DNA of 64,000 nt from a virus (IMGVR_UViG_3300003155_000005:1-64000), one strand, 5' to 3'. Counted from the stretch's first letter, positions 1,065 to 64,000 are shown. The notes: generated by a model from the sequence alone, not told the origin. Numbers and translations: made by a program.

Positions 1065-1469
1065 ATGATAAAACAAATCATTTTTCAAAATTTAGGGGGG
1101 GGGATTATTTTAAGATTTAATACAGATGCAGGAAAATTATTAGAAGAATCTTCTTATAATGGAAATCGTTTTCTTCCCGATAAAAAATTAAAGTCTATAT
1201 ATCTTTATGGAGATAAAAATTTAACAATAAATGATTTTGAACCTACTAAAAATTTGTTAGAAATTAAGTTTCCAATAGAAGATTTATCTTTAATATTTGA
1301 TAAGTTATCAACAGATATATACGGAAATGAGATTGAAATAGGATGTACATATGAAGATGATTCTGAACCACTCACCTATATTAATGTCACTCCAAATATT
1401 ATCGAAAATATGGAAGATTATGTAATATACATATCACCTGGTACTTGATATTATATAAATATAACTTAG
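1065..1469 (+). CDS. poly-G family paralog A (small protein, N-terminal QNLGGGIILR motif), G tract in frame
   Basis: ATG 1065. G9 at 1095..1103 encodes GGG in frame. Shares the LEIKFP motif with the other paralogs. The track ORF stops at TGA 1446-1448; under code 4 it runs to TAG 1467-1469. Confidence 0.6.
1095..1103 (+). repeat. G9 homopolymer inside paralog A (in frame)
   Basis: tta ggg ggg ggg att, counted directly. Such a tract is very unusual in ~30% GC DNA. Confidence 0.9.
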
Positions 1470-1471
1470 TA

Positions 1472-2923
1472 ATGCAAGCAAACAAGTATTTTCAAGTAAA
1501 AGAATTAGTATCATCAAATATCTACAAAGAATATGGAGATGATGCTATAAAATTTTTAGATCCAAAAGCACTTAAAGCTTTAGAGAACGTTAGAGAGATT
1601 TTAGGAGTTCCTCTGATTTGTAATAACTGAGCAGCAGGTGGATCTAGAAATTATAGTGGTTATAGAGAGCCAGGATGTGGAGTTGGAGTTAAAAATAGTT
1701 ACCATTGTATAGATATAAATACTGAAATACTTACAAACCATGGTTGAAAAACTTATAATACAATAGATATCCAAAATGACAAAGTATATAGTTATAATAT
1801 AGATAAGAATGGAATAGAAATAGTGCCAATTCAACAATATTTCTTTCAAAAATATGACGGAGAAATAATTCAAATACAAAATAAGTTAATTGATATTTTT
1901 GTAACAGATCAGCATAGACTTTTAACTAAGGCGAAGAATAATTATAAAGACCGTGAGTTTTATAGATTTGAACTAGCAAAAGATTCATTTGGCAAACGTA
2001 GAGAAATAATGAATGCTGCTAATAACTTAAGTGTTAGTGAAGATTTTGATTTAAATATTTGGCGATTAGCAATGGCAGTTATTGCTGATGGTTCAATTTC
2101 TAAAAAAAATATTAGAAAATATAATAATTTTGTATTTAAGTTGGTTAAAGAAAGAGATATTAATGAATTGGAAAACATTCTATATAATCTTAATCTATCT
2201 TATAGTAAAACTAAAGTTATTAGTTATTATTTATCAAATGGCGATCCTTATTATTGTTGGCAATATATACTTCCAGTAACGAAAGTCACAAAGTCGGTTT
2301 TAGATATAATTGGAAAGAATAAGAAAATACCTAATACTGTATTAGAACTTCCCTCTTATATATTGAAGGAATTATTAATTACATATGCTAAATTTGATGG
2401 AACAATTGATAAACGAACTAATTGTAACTGCATGACCATATACTCTACAGACGAACATAATATCGATATGCTGCAAAAAATGAGTATACTTGCAGGAATG
2501 CGATGTATTAAAAGATCGTTTACAAATCAGAAAGTAATATGTAATAATATTGAAACTACAATTCGTGAAATACATCATTTATATATCCACTTAAATAGGT
2601 CTGAAACTAGAATTAACGAAAAGGATTGATCTAAAAAACAATTTTCTGGATATGTTTGATGTGTTAGTAACCGTAATGAGACTATTATAACTCGAAGAAA
2701 TGGCAAAATCGCAATTATTGGAAATTGCAAAGGACAAGCTTTTGATTTAATATCAAGTAAAATGACAGCTAAAGAGATGAGAGATAAGTTAGAACAAAAT
2801 CAAGATAAACTTATCTATCCAATTCGTGTTGAGAAATGAGAGGGTAACAAAGAAATAGGTTGACTTCATATCGATATTTCTCCTAATACACATGGACAAA
2901 AATTATATTTTTTTAAAGCATAA
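1472..2923 (+). CDS. M15-family zinc peptidase (endolysin-like L-Ala-D-Glu / D-Ala-D-Ala peptidase fold) interrupted by an intein
   Basis: Single frame joins track ORFs 1445..1630 and 1823..2629 through in-frame TGAs and ends at TAA 2921-2923. Spliced exteins give ...NSYH|CKGQAFD..., restoring the S-x-H-x-x-G-x-A-x-D zinc motif. A later GWLHID histidine is also present. ATG 1472 is preferred over TTG 1445. Confidence 0.75.
1706..2725 (+). mobile_element. intein with LAGLIDADG homing endonuclease domain (340 aa)
   Basis: Starts with Cys1 (CIDINTEILT). Block B is VTDQHRLL. LAGLIDADG motifs are LAMAVIADGSI and LLITYAKFDGTI. Ends ...AIIGN followed by +1 Cys. Contains in-frame TGA codons. Confidence 0.75.
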
Positions 2924-2930
2924 AACAATT

Positions 2931-3755: not shown

Positions 3756-3795
3756 AAAACCGCTCTTTTATTAGGAGCGGTTTTATTTTGTTTTT
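3756..3795 (+). terminator. rho-independent terminator
   Basis: Perfect 10-bp stem AAAACCGCTC / GAGCGGTTTT followed by a T-rich run. Confidence 0.65.
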
Positions 3796-3817
3796 ACTAA
3801 AACAATAATTATATTTG
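3787..3817 (+). promoter_or_regulatory. Bacteroidota-type promoter (-33 TTTG 3787..3790, -7 TATATTTG 3810..3817)
   Basis: Both boxes present with a 19-nt spacer, 22 nt upstream of ATG 3839. The sequence TTATATTTG-N-A-N-N-GA-N-CAAATA recurs at 9109 and 37396. Confidence 0.55.
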
Positions 3818-3838: not shown

Positions 3839-6097
3839 ATGAAAACATGGTATAGGAAAATTTCAAGAGGGCCAGATGAGCTTCAAGGTTATTTACCCAG
3901 ATTCAACACTGAAGAAAGGGAAGAACCAAGGCCTCAAACTGTTGCCTCCCCTATAATTGATAGTATTGAAACTTCAGAAGAAGAACCTAGAGCCGAGAAA
4001 GAATCAAAACCTACATATACAACTAGTGCAGATACTACTTCATCTTCATTTAAAAGTAAGAATGAATTTAAGGCTACTATGTTACCTATTTATGAGAGAA
4101 TCCTTTCTCAAATGGGTTTAAATACAGCCTATGCCAAAGCACTAGTTGCACAAGATGGACTTGAATCTGCCTGAGGAACTAAGCCTTCTGGTAAATTTAA
4201 TTTTGGAGGTATTAAAGGAAAAGGCTCTGTAAAAAGAACAAGAGAAGTTATTAATGGGAAAGATGTTTATATTAATGATAGTTTTAGAGATTTTGATTCT
4301 TTAGAAGACTATGCAAAATATAAAATTTCTCTACTTAATAATAATAGATATAAAGCTTTTACTGGAGATATATCTGGATTTGCAGATAGGGTTTTTAGAG
4401 GAGGATATGCAACTGATCCAAATTATGCAGAAACATTAAAAAGAGTAATAGCTTCTGCAAAACACGGAGGTATACTCAAATTTCAAGCAGGAGGAACTGG
4501 AGAAATTAGACCAGATAATAGATCTTGACTTAGAAGAAAGTGAGATAATGTTATTACTGCATATAATTCAAGTAGTTGGGCAAATTCTGCTCCCGCTAGT
4601 GTTATAGCAGGATTTACTCCTTATGGTTTATTTCATTATTCTGCATCAGGAGATGAAGATTCAGCTAGATTAGCTGTATTACCTGGTGCTGTGGGAACAA
4701 AAGAAGTTGCTAAAAATGCGGTAAAAGCTGCAGAAGAAGGTGTAAACTTAGTTTATAGGCATTATGGGAATGATATTTCTAAATACTTTCAAGGTGCTTT
4801 AAAATGGTTACGGAATGCTCGTAAAGGTAGTATTCCAGCTGCCGAAAGATTAGAAGTACCTAAACAAATTTCTAAAATTAGATTAGGAAATCCAAAACAT
4901 GACTATGCATTCTTTAAAGATGCAAAGACTGGAGAAACAATTTTAGAAATAAGTCAAACTGCACAAAATCCTTTACGTTCGGGAGAGAAGGCTGCATCAA
5001 AGCAGCTTCTTCAAGAATTAGTTGGAACTAAAGATGATTTTGGATTAAGAGGATTATCTTATACAGAGAAGGAATTATTTCCAAAGAAATTCTTATCTGC
5101 AATGACTCAGGAAAATAGTGCTAAAGATATCTATTCCAAAATTATGAGTTACAAAGCAGAAGCTGGAATTAGATCCTCTTTTACAGAATTAACTGAAGCA
5201 GAAGCTAGAAAAATCTTTGATATAGGTTGGGATGCTAATATGTTTTATCCAACTACAAGCTCTAATGCTTTACAAACTAAAGAAACCTTCTGGAAAGAGA
5301 ATAAGGATATCATTTTGAAACTATTTAGAAGAGTCCCTGCGATACTTGGAGCAGGTGTTCTTGGAAATGAGGTAGTATCAGAACGTAATAGAGGAATTAT
5401 TAAAGCTCAAGATGGTGCAGATACTCGAAAATGAGTTGATAATTGGCTTTCACAGAGGAAGGATAAACTTAAAAATAATTCTGTTTATTCAGGATGATTG
5501 GCAATACCTGGATTAATAGAAAATCCTTATTTTAGACAATCTGCATCTATGAGTAAATACTCTTTTAAAAGAGGAAAACTCCCAGGTAAAATTACAGGAC
5601 AGACTAATCATAAAGAGAAAACTATAACTACTTCTGATGATAGTAAGAGTACAGAAGTTCATGAATGGACCCATGCAGCCAGACCTTATGAACAAATAGC
5701 TAAGGTTAAAGAAATTATTGATAGATGAGGATTAAAGCCTGGTGTAATACGAGATGATTATTGGGATGATCCTGCAGAAATTTATTCCAGAGTAATGGAA
5801 TTTAGATATAACAATAACTTAGATCCAAATCATGACTATACTTTAGAAGAGGTACAAGAACTTAGAAATAAGAACCATACAGGCGATTATTTAATTAGAA
5901 CAGAGAATCAGTTCTATAAAAGTAATATAAACAATCCAACTATTCCTAAGAAAATTGAACCCATAGAAAAAGCTATAGATATGAATCTTTATAAAGGGCC
6001 TGAAGAACTTTTCGAAAGGCTTGATGATTCTACTATACAGAGATTACTAAATGATGTAGCATGAGTTCCTAAAAAGAACTCTACGTTACATACCTAG
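3839..6097 (+). CDS. large multidomain cell-wall hydrolase: GH73 N-acetylglucosaminidase domain plus a downstream HExxH motif region (752 aa)
   Basis: Track ORFs 3839, 4691, 5498 and 5795 are all in one frame, joined by in-frame TGAs. Ends at TAG 6095-6097. The GH73-like stretch is LVAQDGLESA-W(TGA)-GTKPSGKFNFGGIKG...YATDPNYAETLKRVI. A HEWTH motif lies near 5660. Confidence 0.8.
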
Positions 6098-9086: not shown

Positions 9087-9117
9087 TTTGCTTTTACAAA
9101 AATAATAATTATATTTG
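9087..9117 (+). promoter_or_regulatory. Bacteroidota-type promoter (-33 TTTG 9087..9090, -7 TATATTTG 9110..9117)
   Basis: 19-nt spacer. Near-identical to the promoter at 3787..3817. Confidence 0.55.
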
Positions 9118-9161: not shown

Positions 9162-9902
9162 ATGGAAAATTTCCTTCAATGGATTGAGAAAATTCTGGAG
9201 TTTTTGAAGAACTATGGGTTTTTAAATATTATTAAGTCATGTATTTTAATAATTTTATTTGCATTTACTGTGAACATTGCCTTCAATCCAAAAGAAACTA
9301 TTAAAAACATTATTGAATGGGTTCATGCAATTGAGAAGGAAAAGCATGCTACAAGCGAAGAAATTCGCAGGCATGTTAATCCTGTTATTAATGAATTATT
9401 AGATAATTCTATACGGGATATAGGATGTGATAGGGCTTTTATTATGGAAGGGCACAATGGAAAAGCAAATGATAGCGGATTAGGTTTTTATTACGTAGAT
9501 ATGACTTATGAAAGATGTAGAAAACCCTCATTAGATCAAGCAGTATATTGGCAATACAAAGATATGCCAACCAGTATTTTCCCTTTCTTCAATTATTTGG
9601 ACAAACGCAGATATTTTTATGGGGGTTCAGATGAATTATCCCAAATAGATTCTAAGTTAGCTCAAATGATTAATATCAACGGCACACATTTCTTAGTAGC
9701 TGTTGAAATTCCAGGAAAAAATTCTGCTAATCAATTTATGGGAATACTTGGTTATTCTTTTGAAAATTCCCCCAAACTTACTCAAGAACAAATAAAAGAT
9801 TATATGCTTGAGGTGAGAAGAAGGGTTCAAATACTATTATCGTTAACTTCTTTGAAAGAAGTTGACATCAATCAATTTCGAGAAGCAATATGCCTAAATT
9901 AA
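9162..9902 (+). CDS. hypothetical protein with N-terminal TM segment (246 aa)
   Basis: Complete ATG..TAA ORF. No TGA; its Trp codons are all TGG. Confidence 0.65.
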   Translation: MENFLQWIEKILEFLKNYGFLNIIKSCILIILFAFTVNIAFNPKETIKNIIEWVHAIEKEKHATSEEIRRHVNPVINELLDNSIRDIGCDRAFIMEGHNGKANDSGLGFYYVDMTYERCRKPSLDQAVYWQYKDMPTSIFPFFNYLDKRRYFYGGSDELSQIDSKLAQMININGTHFLVAVEIPGKNSANQFMGILGYSFENSPKLTQEQIKDYMLEVRRRVQILLSLTSLKEVDINQFREAICLN

Positions 9903-11818
9903 AAAATGTTAAGGAAAAATATGTAAATGGCCTTAAAGTAGACAAAGAGACAAAGGATGTAGTATACTCTGATGAAGCTCATGTATATATAGACAAAACA
10001 GATCAACAAAAATATATTTCTGTTACTACTTTAATTGGCAAATATGAGAATCCTTTTGATGTATTTTTTTGGTCTTCCTATAAAACTTGCGAGAAGTTAA
10101 TGTCGGAAGAAACTTTTCATGTACTTAAAGAAACTTTATTAGCTACAAAGAGGTGGACAGATGATATGATTGAAAAGCTTCATCTTGATCCAATTATCTT
10201 TGATAAAACAAGAAAAGAAATACAAAAAGGATATGATGATGAGAGAAATAAATCTTGTGAAAGAGGTACAAAAATACATTCTAATTTTGAAGAGATGTAT
10301 TATACTTCAGAGAAGCAAGATTTAAAAAAGTTTGGTTTAGGAGGAGTTTTTACTTGTAAAAAAGGATATTACGAACTTGATTTAGAAAAAGGAGTATACC
10401 CAGAATTTTTGGTTAGCTTAAAATCTTCCGATGGAATATTACGAGTTGCTGGACAGATAGATTTACTAATTAAAGATGGAAATGACATCTATATTTATGA
10501 TTACAAAGGACTTCCATTAGATACTAAAATCCCTACTAAAACAGGATGGACTACAATTAGAGATATAAAGGAGGGAGAAGAAATATTTGATAAAAATGGA
10601 AACCTTACTAAGGTACTTCATAAATCAGATATTCATTATAATCCTTGCTTTAAAATTACATTTGATAATGGAGAGTCTATAATTGCGGACCATGAACATA
10701 GATGGCTAATATCTTTTAGAAATCCAGATAAAACATTTAGAGAAACTGTATTAACTACAGAAGAGTTGGCAAAATGAATAATTGAAAAGCCAAGAACTTC
10801 ATATAATATCCCAAAAATAAAAAATGCACAGCCTTTAAATCTTCCAGATATAGATTTACCTATAGATCCTTATGTTTTAGGTTGCTGGTTAGGAGATGGC
10901 AGTAAATCTAGTGGGATTATTACTAATATCAATGATAAGATATGGGAAGAAATTCAAAATAGAGGCTATTCTGTGGGAAATAATCTTTCTGGAGAGAATC
11001 ATGCAGAAATGCGAACTGTCTACAATATTAGAGGAATATTAGATGAGCTAGGAATATTACATACTAAGTTTATTCCTGATCTCTATATGAGAGCTTCTTA
11101 CCAACAAAGGTTAGACTTACTACGTGGATTAATGGATACAGATGGTTATTATCATGAATCTAGAAAAAGATTTGTGATGGGAACAACTCAAAAATGGCAA
11201 GCAGAAGATCTGTTTAAATTAGTAAGTACATTAGGTATAAAAGCCACTATTTTTGAAGTAGATAAAAAATGTAATGGAAAAATATTTAAAGGTTGGGATG
11301 TATGCTTTTCAACAAATGGTTTAAATCCATTTTTAGTTAGAAATCAAAATATTGACTTTCCAAAAACTGACAAAAATTCTTTCAGAAATATTATTTCTGT
11401 AGAAAGAGTGGATACTATAGCAACACAGTGTTTAGAAGTAGATAGTCCTTCTCATACGTTTTTGTTTGGGGATTCTATGATAGTTACACATAATACAAAT
11501 AAGGAAATAAAGAAGCGTTCTTACTACGATCAAACTAAATGATCTAATGTAATGATGAAATACCCATTAAATAATATAATGGATTGTAATTATTATCATT
11601 ACACATTACAACTATCTTTATATGCTTATTTGTTACAACAAATTAAACCTGAGCTAAATATCAAGAAATTAACATTAATACATATAGATCATAATGATAA
11701 AATTACAGAATATTCTGTAGATTATCTTAAAAATGATGTAGAAAGAATGTTAAAACACTATAAAAAGCTTTTAAAACAGACGACTATACTTGATAGAGAT
11801 CGTCCTATTATATTTTAA
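9890..11818 (+). CDS. PD-(D/E)XK (RecB/Cas4-like) exonuclease interrupted by an intein
   Basis: Track ORFs 9890, 10973 and 11552 share one frame through TGAs at 10775 and 11540. Exteins carry ERGTKIH, GQIDLLIKDGNDIYIYDYK|TNKE and QLSLYAYLL nuclease motifs. Confidence 0.8.
10508..11494 (+). mobile_element. intein (329 aa) with LAGLIDADG endonuclease domain; class 3-like W-C-T signature, Gly at position 1
   Basis: Begins GLPLDTKIPTKTGW. Block B is GESIIADHEHRW (His B10, Trp B12). LAGLIDADG motifs are LGCWLGDGSKSSG and LRGLMDTDGYYH. Block F is TQCLEVDSPSHTF (Cys F4). Block G is MIVTHN followed by +1 Thr (Thr G5). Confidence 0.7.
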
Positions 11819-18622: not shown

Positions 18623-18920
18623 TTTAGAAGATAAAATACGAAATGTGATAAAAGAAGCTTTATGCTCAGAATATATTGGTAATTTAGATATATTGCATGA
18701 TGAGGATTCTTATACTTTAAAACTGGATTTAAATCAACATGAAGCTCCAATGTATTTTTCTTATCAAGGAAGTGAAGAAGGTTTTCTTGATTACTTATTA
18801 AGAGATTTAAGACAACGACAAATCGATCGTGCTAAGTATTATAAAGGAATAATGACAGATACTGGTAACGATGATATTTATTATATTGTACTAGAATGAA
18901 CAAAACAGAAATCCAATTAA
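18615..18920 (+). CDS. hypothetical protein (~100 aa)
   Basis: ATG 18615 overlaps the terL stop. The track ORF ends at TGA 18897-18899; under code 4 it ends at TAA 18918-18920. Confidence 0.45.
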
Positions 18921-24948: not shown

Positions 24949-24950
24949 TT

Positions 24951-39954: not shown

Positions 39955-39968
39955 AAAGAAATGTGTGA

Positions 39969-39996
39969 AAGATTCCCCTTGTAATAGGGGAATCTT
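39969..39996 (+). terminator. hairpin downstream of the capsid gene
   Basis: Stem AAGATTCCCCT / AGGGGAATCTT. There is no clear T-run, so terminator function is uncertain. Confidence 0.4.
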
Positions 39997-40049
39997 ATCA
40001 CCATTAAATAGATTATATGATGTATAGATAAATTTGAATAAGACAAAAT

Positions 40050-40904: not shown

Positions 40905-40918
40905 TAAATTAGAATATT

Positions 40919-41806: not shown

Positions 41807-41853
41807 GCACAATCTAGGAATTAATAGTATTAATTTTAAATAAATACACAAGT

Positions 41854-43113: not shown

Positions 43114-43131
43114 ATATATAATTTACACAGT

Positions 43132-43172
43132 AATGGCAGGTGGGAGTCTTTTCCTGCCTGCCATTAATTTTA
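43132..43172 (+). terminator. rho-independent terminator
   Basis: Stem AATGGCAGG ... CCTGCCATT followed by AATTTTAAT. Confidence 0.5.
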
Positions 43173-43184
43173 ATATTACAACCT

Positions 43185-45365: not shown

Positions 45366-45366
45366 T

Positions 45367-50300: not shown

Positions 50301-50636
50301 GAAGTAACAGATAAATTAAATTCTATTAGTGCATATACAGTAGCTCATGATTTAGATGAATTAACAATTAATATTAGATCAGAGCTTAAAACATCTTATG
50401 ATACATTTGTATCATCATTACGAGCTGAAAAAACAACATCTAATAGTATTCGTTTTTATTCAATCTATGCAAACAATATTGATGTAGTACATGCATTAAA
50501 AATTGGTTCTGGAGGAGGAAATAAGGGCGAAACTGATCATGGATATTATTTACCTCCCACATCATCTTTTCAATTACCAATATATGAAGAACAATTGTGA
50601 AATAATGTTAGCGAAAATTTTATAAAAAATAAATAA
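47325..50636 (+). CDS. large virion/tail structural protein (1103 aa)
   Basis: Track ORFs 47325, 48126 and 49683 share a frame. At least 13 in-frame TGAs and no TAA/TAG until 50634-50636. Confidence 0.7.
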
Positions 50637-50638
50637 TT

Positions 50639-53600
50639 ATGGCAGATCAAAACAATACAAATTTGTATGTTCTGAAATATCAAACTAAAGGAGATATCGC
50701 TCATGAGTATCAACCATTACAAACAATGGTTAGTACTCAGGGCGAAATCATACCATTTAGAACAGATAAGATACAATCTAGTTTAAATAACCCTGTTGAT
50801 ATTCAATGTCAGCCTTCATATGATGGAACTGTTAATTTAATTATAAATGATGATTTAAATCCTCCAAGAATAATTAATAACAGATTTACTAAAATTGAAA
50901 ACAATAGATATGAGATAAAAACTAGAGATCAGTTTATGCAAACAAATTTATATTCAGAAGAGAAAGTTGATGCACAAACTAGATTATTTAGGAACATAAA
51001 TAAAATACCAAAAATTGATCTATATAATGTAACGTACTATGGACAGTTAGAAGGTGGAAACTATACGTTTTATCTTAAATTGGCAGACAATGATTATAAT
51101 AAAACAGATGTAGTTGCAGAATCTAGTCTAATTAGTATTTTTAATGGCACAATAACAGATATTCCTTCTATTTCTGGAACTTTAGTAGATCAACGAACAG
51201 ATAAGGCCATTATTCTAAATTTAAAAAACCTAGATACAAGTTTCTCATATGCATATTTATATTACAAAAGAGAAACAAGTGACTTAAATGGAGTATTAGT
51301 TTCTAAAACATATGCTGTAAATCAACCATATAAACTTAAATCCTCAACATTATCTATTTGTTTTAATGGTTATGAAGAAGTAACAGAAATAAATCAAGAA
51401 GATCTTAATATTAAATATAATATTTGTACAGCTGTAAAAACACAAGCTCAAGTACAAAATATGCTATTTTTTGGTAATGTACAGCAAACAATAGTAGATA
51501 ATAAAAATTTACAAAACCTTTCATATTACATTGAAGTATCCTGTGGGCGAAAAGAGGATAGCATTGGTTATATTGACTCTACATATAAGAAAAAATTAAA
51601 TGATGATGTTGATCAAACAGAATACTATAATCCATTACAGATATATTATTCATTGGGTTATTGGCCAGATGAAATATATCGTTTAGGTGTAGTATATATA
51701 TTTAATGATGATTCATTAAGTCCTGTATATAATTTAAGAGGATGTAGATTTGAAAATCTTAATACACCAAATTTTGAATATAAAGGACAAATAAAACCTG
51801 AAGATGAAACAACAAACCTATATAATTATCTAAAATTATCTGAGTCTGAATATAATTATCTTCCAAAAGAAACATTTGTTGGTACAGAATATTTACTAAA
51901 TACAAAAGGTGTTTTTAAAATGCCTGATTATGATGTATGTAATATTAAAGATGAAGAATTTAAGGAGATTCATCCTATCTTTCTTAAGTTTAAGTTGCCA
52001 ATTGATGTAAAAAATGAATTAAATAAGTATAATATAAAAGGATTATTTTTTGTTAGGCAAAAAAGAATACCTATTACATTAGCACAGGGATTTACAGTTG
52101 GAATTGATCCAAATAGTTATTGTCCAATGCTATATGAAAATAATGAAAATTATATATTTGAATCATTTATATCTAAAGATGGAATCTTAACAACCAACTA
52201 TAAAGACAGAAAGCGAACAACTTCGTTAAGTCAATCAAGTGGGTTACTTTGTTTAGATGCAAATGTAAATTCACAAATGCAATCATTATTTGATAATAGT
52301 AAATTTATATTGGAGCTTAAAGCTAGATATAAGACTGTAGCATCTAAATCAGATTTAAGACATTATATATGTGAATATGATAAGGAATTAAATACAGGGT
52401 TACAAAATTATGGGGGAATAAGTTCAAACTTATTGTACATTCCAAGTGATATACCTTTAAAATATGTTAACAAATATGGATTTTCAACTCGTGTTGGATC
52501 TGCCGAAGATGTTAAGCAATTTGGTTTTATCGGACAAAAAGATTACTCTAAGGATTATAAAAATATAATTCGAGGAATATTTTGCCCATTTGTTGGAACA
52601 CAAAGTATATTAAATGATTCCGCAATTTATTCTATTAAAATAAGTAATTATTCTTCAATTTATTTTGATAAATATTTTGAAATTAGGGGCAATGATTTAT
52701 CTCCATTTATGAGTATCTCTAACCGTTATGAATTATTAAATGATTCAGAAACTACAACAGATGATAAATATATAATTTTTCCTGATATTTATCGAGGAGA
52801 TTGCTATACAAATACGGTAACAATTAGGATACATACAAACTTTATTGATTCAGAGGTGCCCACAAATCAAATTATTGTTAATCCAAATACTTGAAAAAAT
52901 GGATATAAAGGGTATAAAGAAACAACAATGGATGAATGGAAAGATATAAATAGAGCCGATATCAATAGTGTTCCAATTGGCACCTGAATAACATATAAAT
53001 GTTTGTCTAACTATAATCTAGGTTTAAGAGCGGAAAATAGACAAAATGTGGAAGAAATGGCATTAATGGGAAATCCAAGAAGTTTCTATCCACTATCAGG
53101 TTTATTAACAGCGCCTTCAGGAAAAATAGAAGAATCCTGACTTTTAAACGCAGGTTATAGTGTTACATTGCCATTCAAAAAGTATTTTACTGCTCCAGAT
53201 GTACCATATGTAAAAGATATATTTGATAATCGAATTATGTTTAGCAATGTGCAGATTAATGATGATTTTAAAAATGCATATCGCGTATTCCAAGGATTGG
53301 CTTATAAAGATATAGAAAGACAATATGGTGCAATTGTTAAATTAATTCCATTAGGGGTTAATTTATTCTGTGTATTTGAGCATGGTTGTGCAATTATTCC
53401 TATTAATGAAAAAGCCTTAATATCTACCAATACAGGACAAGCCATTCATATGTATGGAGCAGGAGTATTACAAAATCAAGTTACTCCCATATCTCCAGAC
53501 TATGGTAGTATTTGGCAAGAATCAATTATTCGTACACCAAACGGTATTTATGGGGTTGATACTTATGCTAAGAAAATATGACGATTTAATGAAAAAGAAG

Positions 53601-55120
53601 GTTTCGTATTAATATCAGATACTAAGGTCCAAAGATTTTTAAATGATAATATAGAATTATCGGAGCTTGATAAATATCCAATTGTTGCAGCTAAAAATGT
53701 AAAAGCTCACTATAATAATTATAAAGGGGATGTAATGTTCACATTTTATAATAAGGACAGAATATGGAATCTTTGTTTTAATGAACGTATGGGAACATGA
53801 ATTACAAAATACTCATGAACACCATTATGTTCAGAAAATATTGATAATATATTTTATTCATTAGATCAAAATAGGGCTAGTTTGCTTGGAATATTATGAA
53901 ATAATCAAAACACAGAAAAAGGTTTACGAATTGATAATCATAAAATACCTGCAGAAAAACCATTAAATTTTTCAGAGTGTGGTAATGTTTGAAATAATGA
54001 ATCAATAGACTATGAAGGCACTATTTCATATGTAGGATATAACTTATCAGATAAATTTAAAATACAACTAAAAAAGGTTACAACATCTTATATTAAAGAT
54101 TCAATAGAGGTATTCGAGGAATGGGTCAATTATAATAATCCAGATGAATATCAAAGTATAATTGTAGATGACGTTACTGGAACTTGAGTAGCCAAAGGCA
54201 TTAGTAATGATTCTCGCACAAATATTTTACAGTTAAATAAAGATATATTTAAAAACCGCTATTACATTAAGATAGATGTAAAAATAACTTCAGAAGTTGT
54301 AATTACTGATGAGTATGGTTATACTGATATTAATGCAAATGCTTTCTCTGCATCTATAGTAATTGTTAAAAACAGAGAACAACTTTCAGATGCAGATAAA
54401 CAAGCCTATGATGAACTGCTGCAAAATGGATTTTATGTACATGGTCGTGCTGGGATATTTGATGAGTTAGATTATTCGGATCTGAATCAAGCTAATAATA
54501 TATTACCTACTAAATGGTATAATAAACAAGAACCTTTTGAATTTGAATTTGTCGTAAATACTCCAGCTGGAATTCATAAAATTTTTGATAATTTAGTTAT
54601 GATTTCTAATAATGTAGAGCCAGAATCTTTGGAATTTGAAATTATTGGAGATGTATATGATTTTAATAAAGCAGGACTATATAAATCAGAACATGTTAAT
54701 GTAGATGATTTTTGAAATGCTGATGGCAGCTTTGATAATAAAGGATATATTGCTAAAAAAATTGATCTTGAGAAGGAAACTGCAAAAGAAGGCAAATATT
54801 CTCAAATTTTTGAGAAGCAACAAGTAGAAATTGAAAAAGACCATATCTTAAATCAATATATATTAAAAGTCAAACAACCAATTAAGAATATAAAAACTTA
54901 TGGAAGAAGACTAGGTAATATTGAATATAAAGAAGACAGATGGTTTACCACAATTACTCCCATTTATTATAAAGATAGAATTGTAGGTACTAACAATTTT
55001 ACTGATTTAAAAAGTACAAGAATTAGAGACAAATGGATTAAAATTAGGATTAAATATACTGGAGAAAAACTAGTAGTAATTAATGCTATTCAATCATTAT
55101 TACGATTAAGCTATGCATAA
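50639..55120 (+). CDS. giant virion/tail structural protein (1493 aa)
   Basis: Track ORFs 50639 and 53168 share a frame. It stays open through at least 10 TGAs to TAA 55118-55120, including 53581..55113 where the standard-code track shows no + strand ORF. Confidence 0.7.
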
Positions 55121-56249
55121 TATAAATTATTTACAACCTGGAGGCGCATTTGATATGAAAGCTCTTAACAAAGACATGAATAAAGTGTTTAAACAAGGGC
55201 AAAAGGAAATAAAACAAGCTTCTAATCTTGCATCTACAGGTAATAAGATGGGAATGTCTGGAGGATTACAGGCAGGTTTAGGTGCAGCAAGTTCTATACT
55301 TGGAGGCCTATCGACTTCAGGACTATCTCAAGAACAAGCTTCAACAAGAGAAGGCCTCCGCAGTGCAATCAGCTCTGCGGGCCCTATTGGAGCTATTATT
55401 GGAGCTGCTTCAGGAGTAGTAGATGCTATTGGTTCTGCTACAGGTTTAAACTTAGACAATATTGATGCAGATGCTGCAAAAAGAGCAGGGATTGGAGGAA
55501 AAGCCGCTGCTCAAGGATTTATTAATAGTCTTCCTGGTGTATCAATGCTAGTTGGTATGTTTGGAGGAAAAACTGCAAAATCTTATAAATCTGCAGAAAT
55601 TGATCAAATGACTACTGCCTATGGGGGATCAGTTGCGGATATTAATGCAGCTCAGGCATTAAGTGGCAAAAGAATGTTAGGAACTGGCAAAGCTAATAAA
55701 TTTATTAGAGAACAGAACAGAGTTAATGGTTTAATAACAGATATTAGTTTAGAAAGCAAACTTAGAAAATCTAATTCTATTGCAGACACTTATATTTCTC
55801 AGAATCAAAATATGTATTCTGGTTATACTCCACAACTACTTCTATCTCGTAAAGGTATGAAATTTCCAGAACTTGATAATGCAAGATTATTGCTGCAAAA
55901 GTTGTCTAAGCCTATTCAAGAGCCTCCAAAATTTAAAGATGGAGGTAAACTAAATGTTATTGCAGAAGGATCTTTGCATGCAAGAAAGCATGATTTAGAA
56001 AAAACTAATCCAGAATTGAAAGGAGTTATTACTCATAAAGGAATTCCAGTAATTTCTCACAGTGAAGGAGGGGAAATTATTCAACATGCTGAAATTGAAG
56101 GAGGAGAATTAATTTTGAATAAAGATTTAACTGTAAAGCTTGAAGAATTATTTAAAGATGGTTCTGAAGAAGCAATGATTAAAGCTGGAAAATTATTAAC
56201 AACAGCTATCTTACGAGATACTGAAGATCGCACTAAATCAATTATATAA
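55113..56249 (+). CDS. virion-associated protein (378 aa) with N-terminal YLQPGG and internal KFKDGGK motifs
   Basis: Complete ORF with a Gly/Ala/Ser-rich N-terminal half. Confidence 0.6.
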   Translation: MHNINYLQPGGAFDMKALNKDMNKVFKQGQKEIKQASNLASTGNKMGMSGGLQAGLGAASSILGGLSTSGLSQEQASTREGLRSAISSAGPIGAIIGAASGVVDAIGSATGLNLDNIDADAAKRAGIGGKAAAQGFINSLPGVSMLVGMFGGKTAKSYKSAEIDQMTTAYGGSVADINAAQALSGKRMLGTGKANKFIREQNRVNGLITDISLESKLRKSNSIADTYISQNQNMYSGYTPQLLLSRKGMKFPELDNARLLLQKLSKPIQEPPKFKDGGKLNVIAEGSLHARKHDLEKTNPELKGVITHKGIPVISHSEGGEIIQHAEIEGGELILNKDLTVKLEELFKDGSEEAMIKAGKLLTTAILRDTEDRTKSII

Positions 56250-56827
56250 TGGATATTTTAGTAGGAAATAAGAAATACGATGTAGAGGTTGCAGAAAATG
56301 AAGAGGAAAGAATGAAAGGTCTTCAAGAAGTTATTGAAATGGATGACGATGAGGGAATGTTATTTATATTTCCTGAACCTCAACATGTAGACTTTTGAAT
56401 GAAAGATACTGAGATACCATTGGATATAATTTTTATAAATTCAGATCTGGAGGTAATTTCAGTAAAACAAGGAGAGCCTATGTCCGAAGATTTTATAAGT
56501 GAAGATAATGTACAATATGTTTTAGAAGTAAATCAAAACTCTGGAATTGAGGAAGGGGATGATGTTATCTTAGATTATGAAGAAGATGACGAAGAGGATG
56601 AAGCTGCTAAAATGTATGTGTTAGGGAGTGATGGGCAGGCACAATATGAGCTTGTTGGAGGAGAACGAATCTTTAGCCGACCTAACACAAAAGTTCTTGT
56701 ATCTAAAGCCAAAAAAGCATACAAAACAAAATCGGACTCAGATTATAAAGCTTTGGGAAGACAGGTTTTTAAATATTTAGAGAAGCAAAACTCAAACGAA
56801 CCAGAATATGTAGAATCTCCAAATTAA
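56249..56827 (+). CDS. DUF192-domain protein with acidic linker (192 aa)
   Basis: ATG overlaps the upstream TAA. GMLFIFPEPQHVDF-W(TGA)-MKDTEIPLDIIFI matches the DUF192 GMLF...FWM(K/R)NT..PLD pattern. Confidence 0.65.
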
Positions 56828-56837: not shown

Positions 56838-56869
56838 TTTGGATTATTTAAATAATATATGTAATTTTG
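56838..56869 (+). promoter_or_regulatory. Bacteroidota-type promoter (-33 TTTG 56838..56841, -7 TAATTTTG 56862..56869)
   Basis: Both boxes present with a 20-nt spacer. Confidence 0.45.
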
Positions 56870-57353: not shown

Positions 57354-60300
57354 ATGGCACAGGTAAATATACAAAAACTCCAAGAGGGAGGGTCTGTAAA
57401 AAAATATGGGACCTTCACTAAGGATGGTGTGACATATCAAGTTGACGACGACTTTCTACAGGCTATGGCGGCACACGGTAGTTCAATCACGGATGATAGA
57501 GCTAGAGCTGATTATGGAGCTATTGTTAATGCTCTTAGATCTGGTGCCGATTTATCATATGATTCTAACACTAATGAGTTAAGAGGAGATGTAACGTTTG
57601 ACAACATGAATGCCCGCCAAAGAAGACGTGCTGCAAGACGTACCTCAAAAACTGGAGAAGCATTAGATAGTACTTTTAATGGAAGAGTAAATCAAGTTAA
57701 AAATGCAACAAACGCTTTACGTGGGTTTAATTATAACCGAGTTACTCCTCAGAAAAATAAAAATAAATCTGTAGATTTTTCTAAGGCATTATATCTTTCT
57801 TATAGTAGAGATAAGGACGGAAAACTACTACTTGATGATAAAGGACGTAGAATTTATAATAATGACGCAGATAACGCACGTATTCTTAATAGATTAGATT
57901 TTTTCAGAAATCTTGAAAATGAAGAAAATATAGTTGATTGGAAAGGTTATAACGGACTCACAAAAGAAGGTGCACTAAGGTTTGTTAAAGAGTATACGGA
58001 TTGAGATGGTTTGTATCAAAGATTCAAAGATGGAAGTATTACAGATAGTGATATTAATACATTATCTAAATTAGGCATTCTTGATAAAAAAACCTCTGAA
58101 GAAGGCGGTACTCAGTCAAATCAGGATAAATGGGATAAAGATAATAACTTTACTACTGATTTTAGAAATCAATTTAAAATTTCCTATGGGCCAAAAGGAG
58201 AACTATTAACTGAAGGATTTGGATTAGAAGGCTACGGAAAGGATTGAAGAAATGCATATTTCGGAGAAAACTTTGTCACTATTCACCCAGAATTAAAAAG
58301 ATTCAAAGACTATATTCTTTATAATGGCAGATTATATAGTAAAAATGAGTGGGCTAATCCAGAATCAGAAATTAATCAGATTTTGAATTCTCCGAATGTT
58401 GACATTTTTAATAAGATGCGTCAAAATTTATTTGATCCTGTTAAGAATGGGCAGTGGCAAGTATTATGGACAAATAATCCCTTTCAGAGATATAATTCAC
58501 AACTTCAATACAATCCATACTTCAATAAAACATATAAAAATGATGATAATGTATTATATACTTACACATCACCTTTATATGAGAATCTTCCTAAAGGAGT
58601 TACAGTAATGGATATTATTGATAATAATACTCCTAGAAATGAGTTCGGAGTACCTACTTCTATCTCTTCTATAGGGTTAGATGAGAATGGGAATGTTGTT
58701 GATATTTCTAAATATATTAGGGCTGCAGGATATAATGGAGAAGCTACAGGGAATGCTTTTTATTCAAGAATTGATCCAACAGATAAAATTTTAGGTGGTT
58801 ATATTTGGGATGATTTTGATCCTTCTGGAAGATATAGTTTTGCGTATAATCCAGAGGATGAGACTCAAGGATTCTTTTATGATACCGAAAGTAAAAAATT
58901 ACATCCTTTTAATAGAAACTGATTCAAATCTCTACTTAATGATAATTATTTAAGTGCAGATGAAATAAATGCTATTAAACATAGGGAATGGTCTGGATTT
59001 AGAAGATGGTTGAATACAGGATTTTTTAATGATGAATACGCTGGGAAAAGAGTTCCAGCCATTCATTACAATCGTCAAGTTCCAAAACAACAAACTGGAG
59101 GATTAATTAATTGGATTTCTAAGGATACTGAGAAAACAACCCCAAAGGTAGAGACTCGTGATGAAAAAAAGGCTGCGACTACATCTCAAATAAAAAGTGG
59201 AGATTTAACTGCTGCTGATAAATGACAACTTGGAGCATTAGCAGCTGATTTAGGAGCACTAGTAGCTGCTATACCAACGGGAGGAAATCCTGTAGCAGCA
59301 GCTTTGGGAGTAGGCTCTACTGCAACTCAGTTTATTTCTGATGTTAAAAGAGATGGTTTTGATTTAGGTGATTTAGGAAATGCAGCTTTGGGGCTTGGAC
59401 TAGATGTTGTTTCATTCCTACCAGGTGTTGGAATAGCTGGAAAAGCAGCTAAAACCGCTAGGATAATTAAACGAATTAAACCACTACTAACAGCAGGATT
59501 CTCTGCTTTAGGTCTATCAGCAGCTCTAAACTCTATTAATAAAGAAGGAGAATGGACTCTTGATGATTATAGAAATATATTAATGGGTGTTCAAGGATTA
59601 ATAGGTGGAAAGAGAGCTTTAGATAGAACAATAGGATATAAGAAAACTGGAAGAACAGCAGATATTTCTGGAAAAGCCACTCCTGAAAAATTAATAGATA
59701 TTCAAAAAAGAGCATTAAATGATGCTGTTTCACAAAATCCAGGTCAATTTAAGGGAAAGGCTTGGTATGATGCAAAAACTGGCAATATTAATTATGAAGA
59801 TGCTTTAAAGGATGCCGATGTACTATCTAATCTGCCAAAGAACAAGCTTTATCAGGAAGGACTGTCTAAGATTAAGACGGCAACAAAGAATCTAAACTCT
59901 TCTATTACTGATAGATTAACAGGGGATAGAAAAGAATTAAGAGCCAGAACTGAAGATGAACTTCCTTGGTTCTTACAAAACAGATTTGGTCGTAGTTGGA
60001 TGAGAGGGGCTCAAAATAGAGAATTTGGAAATGTAGTTGAAAGATTAGAAAATAGAGCTGATTTTAGAAAAGAATTTGATGCTCCTAGTGTTAGAGGTCT
60101 TAATATCTTTGAAAGAGGTTATAGAACTACAGGAGAACTTATTAATGGAGATCAAGCTTACTTTAATCCCTACTGGTTTCCTAATCCTATTCCAGCTAAG
60201 CCTATTAAAATTCGCACCGCCAAACCTAGATTAATGTTACCAAAAACTGCAGGTTCTTGAGTACAGTTACCTAATGATGGGGGAATGGTTTATAGACCTC

Positions 60301-61649
60301 AGAGTTTATATAAAAAAGGAGGCAAAATTCTTAAAGCTCAAGGTGGATCAAAATTCTTTGGTAAATCTATGGATAATCAAGGAGCTTATGGTTCCTTCGA
60401 GGTTGATCCTGTAAGTGTAGTGGCAAAAAGTACTTTTACAAGACCTACTATAAATCTTGGAAATAAGGTAGCTGGAGTTCAAAGAGATTCTAATCTGGAA
60501 GCTCAGATAAAAGCTTCAACACAACCTGCCATGGAGGCTCAGAAGGAAAAGGCTCTTAAAAACATAAAAGCCAATACAGTAGTTTCTACTGGAAGTGCCT
60601 CTAATGGAAGAGGCTTTTCGTTCAACCCTAAAAATCTATTAGATTTAGGTTCATTAGCAGGAGGATTAATTTCAAATGCTCGTCAGAGACGTGAGTTAGC
60701 AAGAGGAATCAGAGCAGCAGCTCAAGGTCAATTAAGATCTATGCCAACAGAAATCTATGCTCCATACACAGATATGGGAATTGCTCGTATGTATGGGGAT
60801 AGAATAAAGGATATTCGCCAGTTTAAAACTGTCACAAGTGATCCTAATCAGGTAATGGCTGAAAGACTTATGAGAGATCAGCAAGCTGATCAATTGGCTA
60901 ATGAAAGAGATACTAGATTATCTCAAACTATTAGTGAATTTAATGATAAGGATCTTGCTGCAAGAAGAGAATATGCTAATCAACGTACTCAAATAGCAGA
61001 TTATAATAAGGCAGTTCTTGGCCAAATGGAAAATATGTTAGCTCAAAACAAAGCAGCTAAACAATTTACAGCTTGGAATCAGATCATAAATCCTTTCATT
61101 GATCAAAAGAGAATGGAGTTAGTAAGAGACCAGCAGGATGAACAATTGGCTAATACAGCTAAAGAAAATATTATTGCTCAACAAGATTACCAAAAATCAA
61201 TTCACGATTTATTTAATTCTCAAGAGGCGCAAGATGCATGAGAAAATGAGCAAAATACTAATACAAATTGGAAAACTGAACATGGAGAAGGGGATGCAGG
61301 GAAAATGGCCTTCTTACAAAAATATTATCAAGGTACACTTCAGAATTTACAAAATGATTTAATTAGTAGACAACTTTTAAATTCTTACATAACTGGGTAT
61401 AGTAGATTTACAGGAAGGCGTAGACATATAGATATACCTAGAAGTAACTTACAAAATTATTATGTACCCCATTCTACATATGATTTAAATTACATAAATT
61501 TGAATAAAAAAGGAGGAACTATAACTAAAACTCAGCGATATCGTGATTTTGATGAGCAGGCAATCTTAGATAAAGCAAAGGATTATAGAAAAGCTGTTCA
61601 GAAAATGGATGATAATTTAATAAAGTTATTATTAAAAATGCTTTCGTAA
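57354..61649 (+). CDS. giant virion (cargo/ejection-type) protein candidate (1431 aa)
   Basis: Seven track ORFs (57354, 58011, 58383, 59010, 59304, 60285, 61305) are all in one frame, separated only by single TGAs. Ends at TAA 61647-61649. N-terminus is MAQVNIQKLQEGG. Confidence 0.7.
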
Positions 61650-63523
61650 TGAAAATTCAAAAATATCAATATGGAGCTTCATATACTCCAATTTCAAGAG
61701 AAGTAATGGGACAGTCGCAGGGAGAACCTGCGACTTCTCCTTCTTCTGAAAAGAAAGACGATAAACTAATAGAACAAGAGATCATTAAAGTATTAGGAGA
61801 GAATGGAATTCCTACTGATGTTGATTATTTTCTAAGCCAAGCACAATCTTTCTTGCAAGATTCAACTAATATCTTCTCTGGAAAAAAGACAAATACAATG
61901 AGTCAATTAATTAGACTCAGATCATTAGCAAATAGATTACAACATAATAATGCACTATATAAAAATGCAATAGATAGAATTAAGGTAGAAAATACTGGTT
62001 CTGATGTTGCTATTTCCAATGATGGAAATTTATATGTATATGATGGGGAATCAGTAAAAAAGGTAACTCCAACAGATTATAGTAAGAATCCAGAAGAGTA
62101 TCAAGTTTTAACTAATGCAGAACTAATACATCTAAGGGAAAGAGATCCTAATTTAAAATTTGATGAATCTATCCTACATGATTTATCAAATTCAATAGGA
62201 ATGAAAACTATTATAGACCAAGTAATAGGTACTATTAAAAAATTTGGAACCACTTCCCAAAAAGGTTATACCATTAAGGCTGGAGGCCAAGTTCAAAGGG
62301 GGTTAGAAGCGTTGATGGGTTTAGGTCCTGATGGACTTTATGAAATAGAGGGTTCAGATTCAAAAGCTGCTCAGGATATAAATGCAGCTATTATATACCT
62401 TTATAAGAATTTAAATAATAATGCTAAACATGTATTACGTGCAACTACAGCTGCTGAGGGGTTAAACCCAGAGAGTATGGAGGATGTTACAAGTATTCTA
62501 AAAGCTGCCTTATTTGAACATACAGACACTTCAAGAAAAGTAGGATATGTTAAAGATCCACTAGGAAAAGGTAGTAAAAGTGGTTCAGGAGAAGGTTCAG
62601 GTCCAGGAGATAAAGAAGGTTATGGACAAAGTCTTATTAGTGGCTTTGGTGCTAGTAGAACTCGTAGGGTTAGAACTCGGGATGGAATTGCAGATTTTAC
62701 AGTAGAAGTTAAGCATAATCCAATAAGGGATAAGAATAATGAAATAGTAACTGGCATAGCTACTTTAGATGAGGTTTTTAATGATCTCGCTAAAAATGGA
62801 GTAGTTATGGATAGGGATAAAATGTATTTCGGAGGCATGTACAATGCAAAGGGTTCTAATGGAAGTGTTATTGGAGATAATCAAGATACTTTATTCATTG
62901 ACCCGAATAAAGCTAGAGAAGTTATTGTAGATGCTTCAGATGGTGTAGAAACTATAGATGTTCCTGTTGATTATACTGGAAAGCCTGATTTTGGAGCTAT
63001 TAATAGATATCAGATGGCTGTTGATGAAATAGCTAAAAATAAAATTACTGATCCAAGAGAAATTTTTGAAATATATAAGAAATATGCTTTAGATAATAAT
63101 TTAGATCAGGATGGAAATTTAATGACTGGACGTTTTCTTGCTGTACATGCTAAAATGTCAGAAGATGAAGGAGCAGTTGCTGGATATACCTCGGACAATC
63201 CTACTATTGATAGACTTACAGGTCAAGATAGAGATAAATTTATGAATGATGTAAATTATGCTAATCAGAATAGAGAAAAGAAGAATAAAATTAAAATTAA
63301 TTATGGTTGGATTTGAAATAGAGGAATCTTAAGCGGTACAGTATTCATTCCTTTATATGTTAATCAAGCATCTCAGGCAATATCTGATGAACGAGCAAGA
63401 ACAGATAAGAGAACTGGCTCAGAATATCAAATGATGCAAGAAGCTTATGTTGATCCAAGATATAATAATGGAACATATAATCCAAGACAAACTAGGCTAC
63501 AAACCTCATTTGGAGATTTATAA
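61649..63523 (+). CDS. large virion protein (624 aa), N-terminus MKIQKYQYGA
   Basis: Track ORF 61649..63316 extended through TGA 63314 to TAA 63521-63523. Confidence 0.65.
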
Positions 63524-63528
63524 AAAAT

Positions 63529-64000
63529 ATGGATAATAACGTTAAACAAAATGATTGGGTTGCTATAAATCTGTTAAATACAGATGTTACAATTGACAAA
63601 TTAGCAGCAGATGGTATAAACTCTTTAAATACAAGTATCCGTCCGAAAGAAGATTATCTTAAATCGGACAAAGTACAAGAGTTTTTTAAAGATGATAGTG
63701 GAAAATTTAATGAGGCTTTATTTGATCAATTTTATACAAAAGCATTACAGGACTATACTAGTTTTTCAGCTTTAGATACAGAAAAGTGGTTAAAAGATAC
63801 ATATGAATATGATGCCTTTGATATAAATAGAGATGCCAAAAGTAATATCAAAAAAGGACCTACTTTTGAAATTAGAAAAGTATCCAATCCTTTTGAAACA
63901 ACTTCATATTTCCATGAGGGAACTGAGGGACCTAGAGCCTTGAGTATTGCTGAGCTTGCACAAAAAAACAAATACTTTGATACAGAGAGTGGAACATGGT
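63529..64000 (+). CDS. hypothetical protein, N-terminal part (continues beyond window end)
   Basis: ATG 63529 (MDNNVKQNDWVAINLLNTDV...) stays open to the end of the window. Confidence 0.55.
   Translation, partial: MDNNVKQNDWVAINLLNTDVTIDKLAADGINSLNTSIRPKEDYLKSDKVQEFFKDDSGKFNEALFDQFYTKALQDYTSFSALDTEKWLKDTYEYDAFDINRDAKSNIKKGPTFEIRKVSNPFETTSYFHEGTEGPRALSIAELAQKNKYFDTESGTW

Follow-up and report, generated by a model that had tools for sequence, protein, structure and literature searches.

Which genetic code does a phage use when many of its late genes are interrupted by TGA codons, and what decodes the reassigned codon? The question is raised by IMGVR_UViG_3300003155_000005:1-64000, a 64 kb stretch of phage DNA (hereafter, the window, meaning the whole stretch) that was analyzed here by sequence comparison. 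An initial annotation had proposed that TGA is read as tryptophan throughout the phage part of the window and that the phage would require decoding machinery of its own. We conclude, with a probability of roughly 0.9, that UGA is a Trp codon used beside UGG in the late arm of a large crAss-like phage, and that a code-neutral early region and a tRNA(UCA) like those found in its relatives would supply the decoding.

Gene calls with TGA as a sense codon

The window has a GC content of 32% and a GC skew that is positive throughout, and nearly all its long open reading frames (ORFs) are on the plus strand. When TAA and TAG are the only stops, this strand resolves into 58-61 genes, compared to 79-89 short ORFs in the standard code; the working list used here consists of 59 plus-strand genes with TAA or TAG stops. 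Re-calling the genes with translation table 4 instead of table 11 bears out the proposed recoding: coding density rises from 0.70 to 0.91 with ATG starts and from 0.78 to 0.93 with ATG, GTG and TTG starts, and the mean gene length from 187 to 337 aa. This gain in density far exceeds the 5-10% criterion of Borges et al. The features on which the argument draws are the following.

1-543, minus strand: terminal part of the opposite-strand module, with 0 TGA in an ORF that continues past the window edge
1065-64000, plus strand: co-directional late gene module (virion, packaging and lysis-type genes), 59 genes with TAA/TAG stops
3839-6097, plus strand: GH73 glucosaminidase domain protein, 752 aa, 7 in-frame TGA
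18896-21100, plus strand: portal protein with a P22-like portal Pfam domain, 1 TGA (20192)
44619-45365, plus strand: crAss ring protein 1 (Pfam CrAss_Ring_1), 4 TGA
47325-50636, plus strand: virion protein, 1103 aa, 13 TGA
50639-55120, plus strand: crAss muzzle protein, 1493 aa, 10 TGA; homologues with crAss_MUZ
56249-56827, plus strand: DUF192 protein, the conserved W of F-W-M-K being encoded by the TGA at 56396
57354-61649, plus strand: 1431-aa protein, split by 6 TGA into seven ORFs in the standard code

Altogether, 97 in-frame TGA codons are spread over 31 of the 59 genes, and the same gene set contains 130 TGG codons, in agreement with the parallel use of the two codons noted previously. 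Conserved essential genes are among those affected, namely the exons of the large terminase subunit (TerL), portal, ring and muzzle; the gene resembling that of the major capsid protein (MCP) has none. Trp accounts for 1.15% of the codons if TGA is included and for 0.65% without it, and for 1.19% in homologues. The broken ORFs listed in the initial annotation (3839/4691/5498/5795, 47325/48126/49683 and the seven same-frame ORFs within 57354-61649) were all reproduced in the standard code, and the segment 53581-55113 indeed has no plus-strand ORF of at least 60 aa in that code and becomes part of the 1493-aa protein with recoding. The further claim that every ORF stopped by TGA is followed by another one in the same frame is correct as regards the continuation of the frame and too strong as regards adjacency: the next ORF is in the same frame after 31 of the 49 code-11 ORFs that end in TGA, with short pieces intervening otherwise, as opposed to 5 of the 39 that end in TAA or TAG (Fisher p = 1.3e-6). 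The gene calls show that only UAA and UAG end genes in the late arm of the window.

A separate candidate, TAG as a sense or readthrough codon, was prompted by a tRNA with the anticodon CUA in some relatives (see below) and was rejected: it brought little gain in density, and there were no unusual stops downstream of TAG-ended genes.

The amino acid encoded by TGA

Tests at the DNA level were chosen for the assignment because the database from which the muzzle homologues come translates some contigs with code 4. The most informative sequence is a contig of an NCBI Bacteroidales metagenome-assembled genome (MAG), denoted L004, a 74%-identical relative with 0 in-frame TGA in its genes. Over four genes, it contains TGG opposite 22 of the 28 TGA codons of the window (about 0.3 of 28 expected by chance; binomial p ~2e-37), including 9 of 10 in the muzzle gene, 10 of 13 in the gene for the 1103-aa protein and 3 of 4 in that for ring protein 1. 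MT835470.1, which is 38% identical and TGA-free, has TGG at 4 of the muzzle TGA positions and Phe or Tyr codons at 3 more. In an alignment of 120 muzzle homologues, 4 of the 10 TGA positions are W in 120/120 sequences, two further ones in 118/120 and 97/120, and the remaining positions fall in aromatic or variable columns.

Closer relatives exchange the two codons in both directions. Comparison with contig L001 (85-91% identical) gave 22 positions at which TGA is retained, 15 changes from TGA to TGG and 13 from TGG to TGA, and exchange both ways was also seen in seven more IMG/VR relatives (L008-L014); by its pattern in these comparisons, the swapping is exchange of the synonymous type. The individual positions singled out in the initial annotation fared equally well. 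Solved FlgJ glucosaminidases have the W of LETGWG opposite the TGA at 4172, which lies within the GH73 catalytic-region motif LESAWG; two solved DUF192 proteins likewise have W opposite the TGA at 56396; and six TGAs of the terminase exons align with TGG or Tyr/Phe codons of uninterrupted standard-code terminases. Across the homologue alignments, Trp is the favored residue at TGA positions, and Gly, Ser and gaps are favored nowhere. The reading of TGA as Trp is thus as secure as sequence alone allows. The part of the original claim that has to be given up is "throughout", considering that 28 of the 59 genes lack TGA and two blocks of genes avoid it.

A crAss-like phage with large relatives

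By its predicted portal, ring, muzzle and TerL signature genes, located in a co-directional block, the phage is crAss-like. More than 1,400 homologues exist for the muzzle protein (50639-55120), and the crAss_MUZ assignment is precomputed for a 91%-identical homologue and for nearly all homologues listed; TerL matches PHROG 6681 and Crassvirales records, with a best GenBank match of 43% identity, and the MCP-like gene has a weak PHROG match to a major head protein. Pfam searches detected no domain in 10 structural proteins, those of 1103 and 1431 aa among them, the muzzle protein sequence had no match in the PDB, and a megablast search of GenBank phages with 22 kb of window DNA gave no real match. 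An exact-protein search with one window gene likewise had no match in the collection queried. At the DNA level, the nearest relatives are IMG/VR contigs with lengths of 105-178 kb and identities of 85-97% over the aligned parts; a 172,095-bp contig among them has a circularly permuted order with respect to the window. In size (163-178 kb in relatives), composition, intron and intein load and recoding, the phage fits the Zeta crAss-like group. The Zeta-type features present include two ORFs in TerL introns, a LAGLIDADG domain inside a PD-(D/E)XK gene and several GIY-YIG ORFs.

In a GenBank phage, L003 (MT835492.1, 99499-104581), the muzzle homologue fragments if TAA and TAG both act as stops, which suggests that L003 is a TAG-recoded relative.

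The early region and tRNA array of relatives

Leftward of the opposite-strand module end at 1-543, the relatives carry TGA-free early and metabolic genes and a tRNA array. The genes on this strand are long code-11 genes that end in TAA or TAG and have 0 in-frame TGA (contig 161691); a single early gene has TGA as its stop, directly backed by TAA. The TGA-free products include NAMPT, NAD synthase, NADAR and an isochorismatase-type enzyme, a set that looks like NAD salvage, as well as adenylosuccinate synthetase, an IMPDH/GMP-reductase-type enzyme, an SPFH protein, and an ABC transporter permease and ATPase (L038 11675-19551; L077 10797-15283; L018 8573-10248). Taken together, the window and its relatives have the layout, with code-neutral early genes and recoded late genes, of the code-switching phage proposal. 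No release factor or tryptophanyl-tRNA synthetase (TrpRS) was seen in about 50 kb of the relatives, including ten early-region proteins, with about 60 kb of those genomes outside this scope.

The array comprises more than 25 tRNAs interspersed in the early region, about 40 kb to the left in close relatives, and includes a canonical tRNA-Trp(CCA). A subset of the close relatives also has a tRNA with the anticodon CUA, labeled "Pyl" by ARAGORN (L021 18626-18706, L024 18188-18268, L027, L028, L031-L033, L035, L037, L052, L053 and L066). The array further contains tRNA-like genes with a 6-nt anticodon loop, CUGAGG, or with an 8-nt loop holding a four-base "anticodon", GUGU or GCGU (L018 8057-8130; L032 11369-11441; also L035, L039 and L083-L085); those with the 8-nt loop are scored as tRNA by Rfam.

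A tRNA(UCA)-like gene with two alleles closes the array

In every close relative in which the locus is covered, the array ends, after tRNA-Leu(UAG), with a tRNA(UCA)-like gene that ARAGORN labels "SeC" and that occurs as two alleles. The expectation that the phage needs a decoder of its own is accordingly borne out in close relatives; the window itself has no tRNA. Allele A is 91 nt long, has 61% GC within an AT-rich spacer and is identical in ten contigs. Its predicted fold combines acceptor and anticodon stems of 7 and 6 bp, respectively, with a CUUCAAA loop and G73; the variable arm is long, with UCCA contained in its loop UCCAUCU, and the T loop, AUCGUUA, is unusual. A second variant (L086 13376-13466) has a compensatory change from G-C to A-U in the anticodon stem, and one contig has a 600-nt insertion in allele A, between U34 and C35. 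Allele A and TGA-containing late genes occur together in the four contigs nearest to the window (allele A loci: L077 19253-19343; L078, L080, L082, L083, L088, L089, L090, L106, L107 and L193-L205).

Allele B is always split at the same point as allele A, by an insertion of about 605 nt in close relatives. In the joined sequence, of 94 nt, the D and T arms are normal, the CUUCAAA loop and G73 are again present, and the variable arm forms the stem-loop GGGGU-CUCCAAA-ACUCC, the loop of which is identical to the anticodon loop of the phage tRNA-Trp(CCA).

A pattern search for this two-arm layout retrieved 49 IMG/VR contigs from many samples, 17 with an uninterrupted gene and the rest with insertions of 186-706 nt at the same site (L079 18955-19653, joined exons; L113-L161; alignment A1). 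Among 185,579 bacterial and archaeal species genomes the layout occurs about twice, both times on short or phage-like MAG contigs. Most other pattern matches in the genome collection were rejected as chance matches in coding DNA or as ordinary tRNA-Trp genes. The 25 distinct joined sequences that were aligned mostly have the acceptor stem of bacterial tRNA-Trp (A1-U72, AGGGGC.../...GCCCCU, G73). When the five-helix structure is imposed on them, 98.1% of the cells are paired, with 79 double-change cells compared to 17 ± 3 in shuffles; double changes affect 11 pairs, and in the extra arm alone three pairs show four pair types each. Both loops and the T loop were set by the search pattern, so that their constancy is no evidence, in contrast to the covariation of the stems. 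The cloverleaf predicted for the two-arm family, to which allele B belongs, is supported by this covariation. As a control, environmental tRNA-Sec with a UCA anticodon and a long arm showed, among the matches listed, CUCCAAA in 0/119 and UCCA in the variable arm in 1/119. A full-text literature search found no paper describing such a tRNA, which is no proof that it is unpublished. One of the phages involved, L129 (IMGVR_UViG_3300045988_171911; 173,322 bp), carries an intron-split two-arm tRNA(UCA).

The insertions, 186-706 nt long and located between positions 34 and 35, have boundaries that are precise against intron-less copies (L085 19372-19971; L079 18988-19592; L084; L087; L113-L161). They are preceded by U, end in G and contain core motifs of the GAUAUAGUCC or AAGAUAUGG type (J8/7-like), and some encode a PD-(D/E)XK-like ORF with an in-frame TGA at codon 4. 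Rfam gave no group I match at E <= 1-10. By splice rule, site, polymorphism and motifs, and not by covariance model, these putative introns are group-I-like.

Proposed mechanism and alternative explanations

The following scheme would account for these observations. The opposite-strand early, metabolic and tRNA region would be free of TGA as sense or stop codon and, being TGA-free, readable by an unmodified standard-code host. It would supply a phage tRNA with the anticodon UCA, the phage of the window presumably having the same tRNA as its relatives. Produced ahead of demand from the late genes, this tRNA would undergo splicing and receive Trp from the host TrpRS; after its build-up, the terminase, portal, ring, muzzle, lysin-type and homing endonuclease genes could be translated in full. 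The main identity element for TrpRS is the anticodon. The mimic arm of allele B and its family would show "CCA" to the host enzyme, thereby offsetting the loss of C34 in the real anticodon and keeping the tRNA(UCA) charged with Trp while the real anticodon reads UGA. That such a tRNA, derived from tRNA-Trp, with an arm copying the Trp anticodon loop and often split by an intron, is an overlooked kind of suppressor that decodes the TGA codons of the window is a possibility that we consider doubtful. If it were true, the apparent lack of a suppressor tRNA in most code-4 phages would be explained by intron-split genes and odd tRNA shapes.

Several observations weigh against the scheme as a whole or against parts of it. 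The window itself yielded no tRNA with ARAGORN, nothing in Rfam at the gathering threshold and no release factor or TrpRS, and the decoder attributed to its phage comes from relatives that are 85-97% identical. The Rfam tRNA model misses allele A even at permissive thresholds, notwithstanding the fold obtained with ARAGORN; the structure predicted for this allele has a T loop that is not canonical and is backed by a single compensatory change between two variants. L004 has non-aromatic codons opposite 6 of the 28 window TGAs. Finally, the distinction between early and late expression is read from gene content alone, and the placement in the Zeta group fits by shared features, not by phylogeny.

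Among the alternatives, the one that survives best, which we still regard as improbable, dispenses with a dedicated suppressor: UGA would be read by near-cognate wobble of the phage or host tRNA-Trp(CCA), and the UCA element would not be a working tRNA. Relatives do encode a canonical tRNA-Trp(CCA), allele A is missed by Rfam and has an aberrant T loop, and published surveys find a UCA suppressor in only ~35% of code-4 phages. However, the UCA element lies in the tRNA array, has a perfect CUUCAAA loop and a compensatory stem change, hosts a group-I-like intron at 34/35, and is allelic with a well-formed tRNA(UCA) from a strongly covarying family (98% paired; 79 vs 17 compensatory cells), and near-cognate reading would probably be too inefficient for genes with 10-13 TGAs each.

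It appears very improbable that the host itself uses code 4, like Mycoplasmatota or reduced symbionts, with the phage sharing that code and requiring no machinery of its own. A GC content of 32% combined with TGA as Trp is the classic code-4 setting, Bacillota hosts (Holdemanella, Faecalibacillus) have been predicted for opal-recoded Zeta phages (PMC12386605), and MAGs assigned to Bacilli or Lactobacillus include two contigs with a related tRNA. Yet a code-4 host would not impose the avoidance of TGA seen in the early genes of relatives, one of which ends in TGA followed by TAA, and the relatives carry their own tRNA(UCA); moreover, the 74%-identical relative without any TGA comes from a Bacteroidales MAG, and Bacteroidota-type promoter-like sites are located upstream of genes in the window. 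The candidate hosts named, Holdemanella and Faecalibacillus, are themselves standard-code organisms.

We give even less credence to TGA encoding another amino acid, Gly (as in code 25) or Ser. Serine would find some support in the tRNA itself: both tRNA(UCA) alleles are class-II-like, with G73 and a long variable arm, which are identity features for seryl-tRNA synthetase, an enzyme that ignores the anticodon. The codons, however, point elsewhere, TGA being opposite TGG or aromatic codons and never preferentially Gly or Ser, with six muzzle positions W in at least 97 of 120 homologues and four in 120 of 120; furthermore, the wider family has the acceptor stem of tRNA-Trp, and its extra arm copies the Trp anticodon arm, not one of the Ser type.

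Least credible of all is that the TGAs are true stops, in pseudogenes or through assembly errors, low readthrough, selenocysteine or frameshifting: the window still gives many code-11 ORFs and ARAGORN labels the tRNA of relatives "SeC", but the frame is kept at 97 TGAs, including those in the essential TerL, portal and muzzle genes, the TGAs occupy conserved Trp columns, with TGG taking their place in other strains and vice versa, they are far too numerous for selenocysteine and at Trp, not Cys, sites, and the pattern is common to independent contigs from several samples.

Uneven use of TGA across late genes

The use of UGA for Trp does not extend evenly over the late module; the collagen-like genes and the two TGA-poor blocks are listed here.

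22074-23819 (8 TGA) and 27860-30067 (1 TGA): collagen-like proteins with Gly-X-Y repeats, probably fibers
23830-32357, plus strand: block of tail and tail-fiber genes, nearly TGA-free
37448-43853, plus strand: block without TGA, consisting of the MCP-like gene (38539-39954) and five neighbors

The blocks 23830-32357 and 37448-43853 together contain 2 TGA and 35 TGG codons, compared to 95 of each in the rest of the window (Fisher p = 9e-8). Base composition was considered as the cause and dismissed: the GC content at third codon positions is 0.18 in both sets of genes and, being equal, does not explain the avoidance. We infer that the most heavily expressed virion genes avoid the codon that depends on the suppressor; earlier expression of these blocks, or recent exchange with standard-code relatives, are alternatives.

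Terminase introns, probable inteins and homing endonucleases

The terminase gene, six TGAs of which figure in the comparisons above, is arranged as follows.

14406-14966, plus strand: TerL exon 1 (aa 13-199 of the intact TerL); TGAs 14529 and 14724 opposite TGG
14967-15974, plus strand: TerL intron 1, with a LAGLIDADG ORF at 15058-15843
15975-16400, plus strand: TerL exon 2 (aa 200-341); TGAs 16107 and 16329 opposite Tyr/Phe/Trp codons
16401-17479, plus strand: TerL intron 2, with a LAGLIDADG ORF at 16448-17323 (2 TGA)
17480-18619, plus strand: TerL exon 3 (aa 342-729); TGAs 18182 and 18569 opposite Tyr codons

On the intact 762-aa terminase of MT835470.1, the three pieces adjoin with neither gap nor overlap, and this exact abutting implies that two insertions, both about 1 kb long and with a LAGLIDADG ORF in each, interrupt the gene. 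Both insertions are preceded by T and share the 3' end GGATAACAAA(A)ATTG, so that the last base of the intron is G. Rfam produced no group I match for the TerL introns, also at permissive thresholds; from the splice-site rule and the J8/7-like motifs we infer that they are of the group I type.

Other mobile elements are present in the window. A probable intein in the 483-aa protein (1472-2923) would extend from "...SYH|CIDINTEIL" to "...IAIIGN|C", and another, with an internal Pfam LAGLIDADG_3 match and the end "...IVTHN|T", is located in the PD-(D/E)XK nuclease (9890-11818). GIY-YIG/NUMOD homing endonuclease ORFs were found at 33291-33947, 43853-44689 and 45271-46326, two of them TGA-rich; the one at 43853 is not present in the 91%-identical relative L001. 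A motif resembling a group I core, AAGATATAGTC, follows the endonuclease ORF 33291-33947 at 33977, and in view of this motif the ORFs 32338-32775 and 34026-34694 may be parts of one split gene.

Promoter-like sites and the host

From promoter boxes, the initial annotation had deduced a Bacteroidota host. The sites in question are listed here.

3787-3817, plus strand: site resembling Bacteroidota promoters (TTTG ... TAnnTTTG), located upstream of the GH73 gene
9087-9117; 37373-37404; 56838-56869; 810-840 (minus strand): further promoter-like sites

The sites at 3787-3817 and 9087-9117 are nearly identical, TTTG(T/C)TTTTAC(T/A)AAAA(C/T)AATAATTATATTTG, and both are closely upstream of genes. The deduction is weakly supported: 5 matches to the promoter pattern lie in intergenic gaps upstream of genes, but across the window 9 matches were found against 5.1 expected, which is not a significant enrichment.

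Comparison with known systems

UGA and UGG both specify Trp under code 4 of Mycoplasmatota and mitochondria, where a tRNA-Trp(UCA) serves as decoder, and the phage tRNA likewise joins a UCA anticodon to acceptor features of tRNA-Trp. Unlike in those systems, the code covers part of one phage genome in what is presumably a standard-code cell, and the tRNA has an extra long arm. Stop-codon recoding is reportedly also the subject of Ivanova et al. 2014. Long paired variable arms are shared with class II tRNAs and allo-tRNAs (Mukai et al. 2017, PMC5389517) and with tRNA-Sec, which also has the UCA anticodon; in contrast to tRNA-Sec and allo-tRNAs, the phage tRNA has 7/5 acceptor/T branches, a tRNA-Trp-like acceptor stem and a variable arm capped by CUCCAAA.

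The insertions in the tRNA resemble the group I introns of bacterial tRNA genes, such as cyanobacterial tRNA-Leu(UAA), tRNA-fMet with I-Ssp6803I and Azoarcus tRNA-Ile, in their location in the anticodon loop, in the U that ends the 5' exon, the G that ends the intron and the J8/7-like core (GAUAUAGUCC / AAGAUAUGG), in their presence/absence polymorphism and in the optional endonuclease ORF, which is PD-(D/E)XK-like here. They differ in that the host gene is a phage opal-suppressor tRNA and that the Rfam group I model is silent.

The lytic-switch recoding phages (Borges et al., bioRxiv 10.1101/2021.08.26.457843) similarly combine early genes compatible with the standard code, recoded late genes and TGA-rich homing endonucleases. 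Their gene-level statistics concern Agate phages (TGA) and crAss-like phages of ~105 kb (TAG), unlike the phage analyzed here. Two further differences are that the genes for the most abundant virion proteins avoid the recoded codon here and that no "code change module" of TrpRS and RF1 was seen in the parts examined. For recoding under code 15, there is proteomic proof (PMC9523058).

The closest parallel is provided by the opal-recoded Zeta crAss-like phages (Yutin et al. 2021, PMC7886860), among them Lera, ct1yV3, c815351 and ctvkg4 (PMC12386605). Like the phage of the window and its relatives, they have genomes of ~170-180 kb with ~32% GC and a block of 18-26 tRNAs, use TGA for Trp chiefly in genes for structure and lysis, muzzle, ring and TerL among them, and have introns and inteins in TerL and further genes; in some members a CUA suppressor occurs without amber recoding, a puzzle discussed in PMC12386605, and a suppressor tRNA is not always detected. 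In contrast to the Zeta reports, the "missing" suppressor of the relatives is traced here to a non-canonical or intron-split tRNA(UCA), and the window matches no searched record identically, its IMG/VR relatives being 85-97% identical. Late-gene recoding of TGA to Trp in crAss-like phages has been described repeatedly (PMC7886860, PMC12386605, bioRxiv 10.1101/2021.08.26.457843), and TGA recoding in this phage group is already documented. In practical terms, the late arm of the window needs table 4, in the absence of which 31 genes shatter and proteins of the muzzle, ring, terminase and lysin type are missed. It is also an example of partial, module-specific recoding in which the recoded codon is avoided in the genes for the most abundant virion proteins; these TGA-poor genes are relevant to the question whether recoding serves as a timing switch or imposes a cost on translation. 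In published surveys, a UCA suppressor is found in about 1/3 of TGA-recoded phages, and the upkeep of Trp charging is unexplained; the intron-split tRNA(UCA) of the relatives, with its mimic of an anticodon arm, would offer a testable answer to both the missing suppressor and the charging with Trp. Beyond the recoding itself, it is this suppressor tRNA that is the part worth following.

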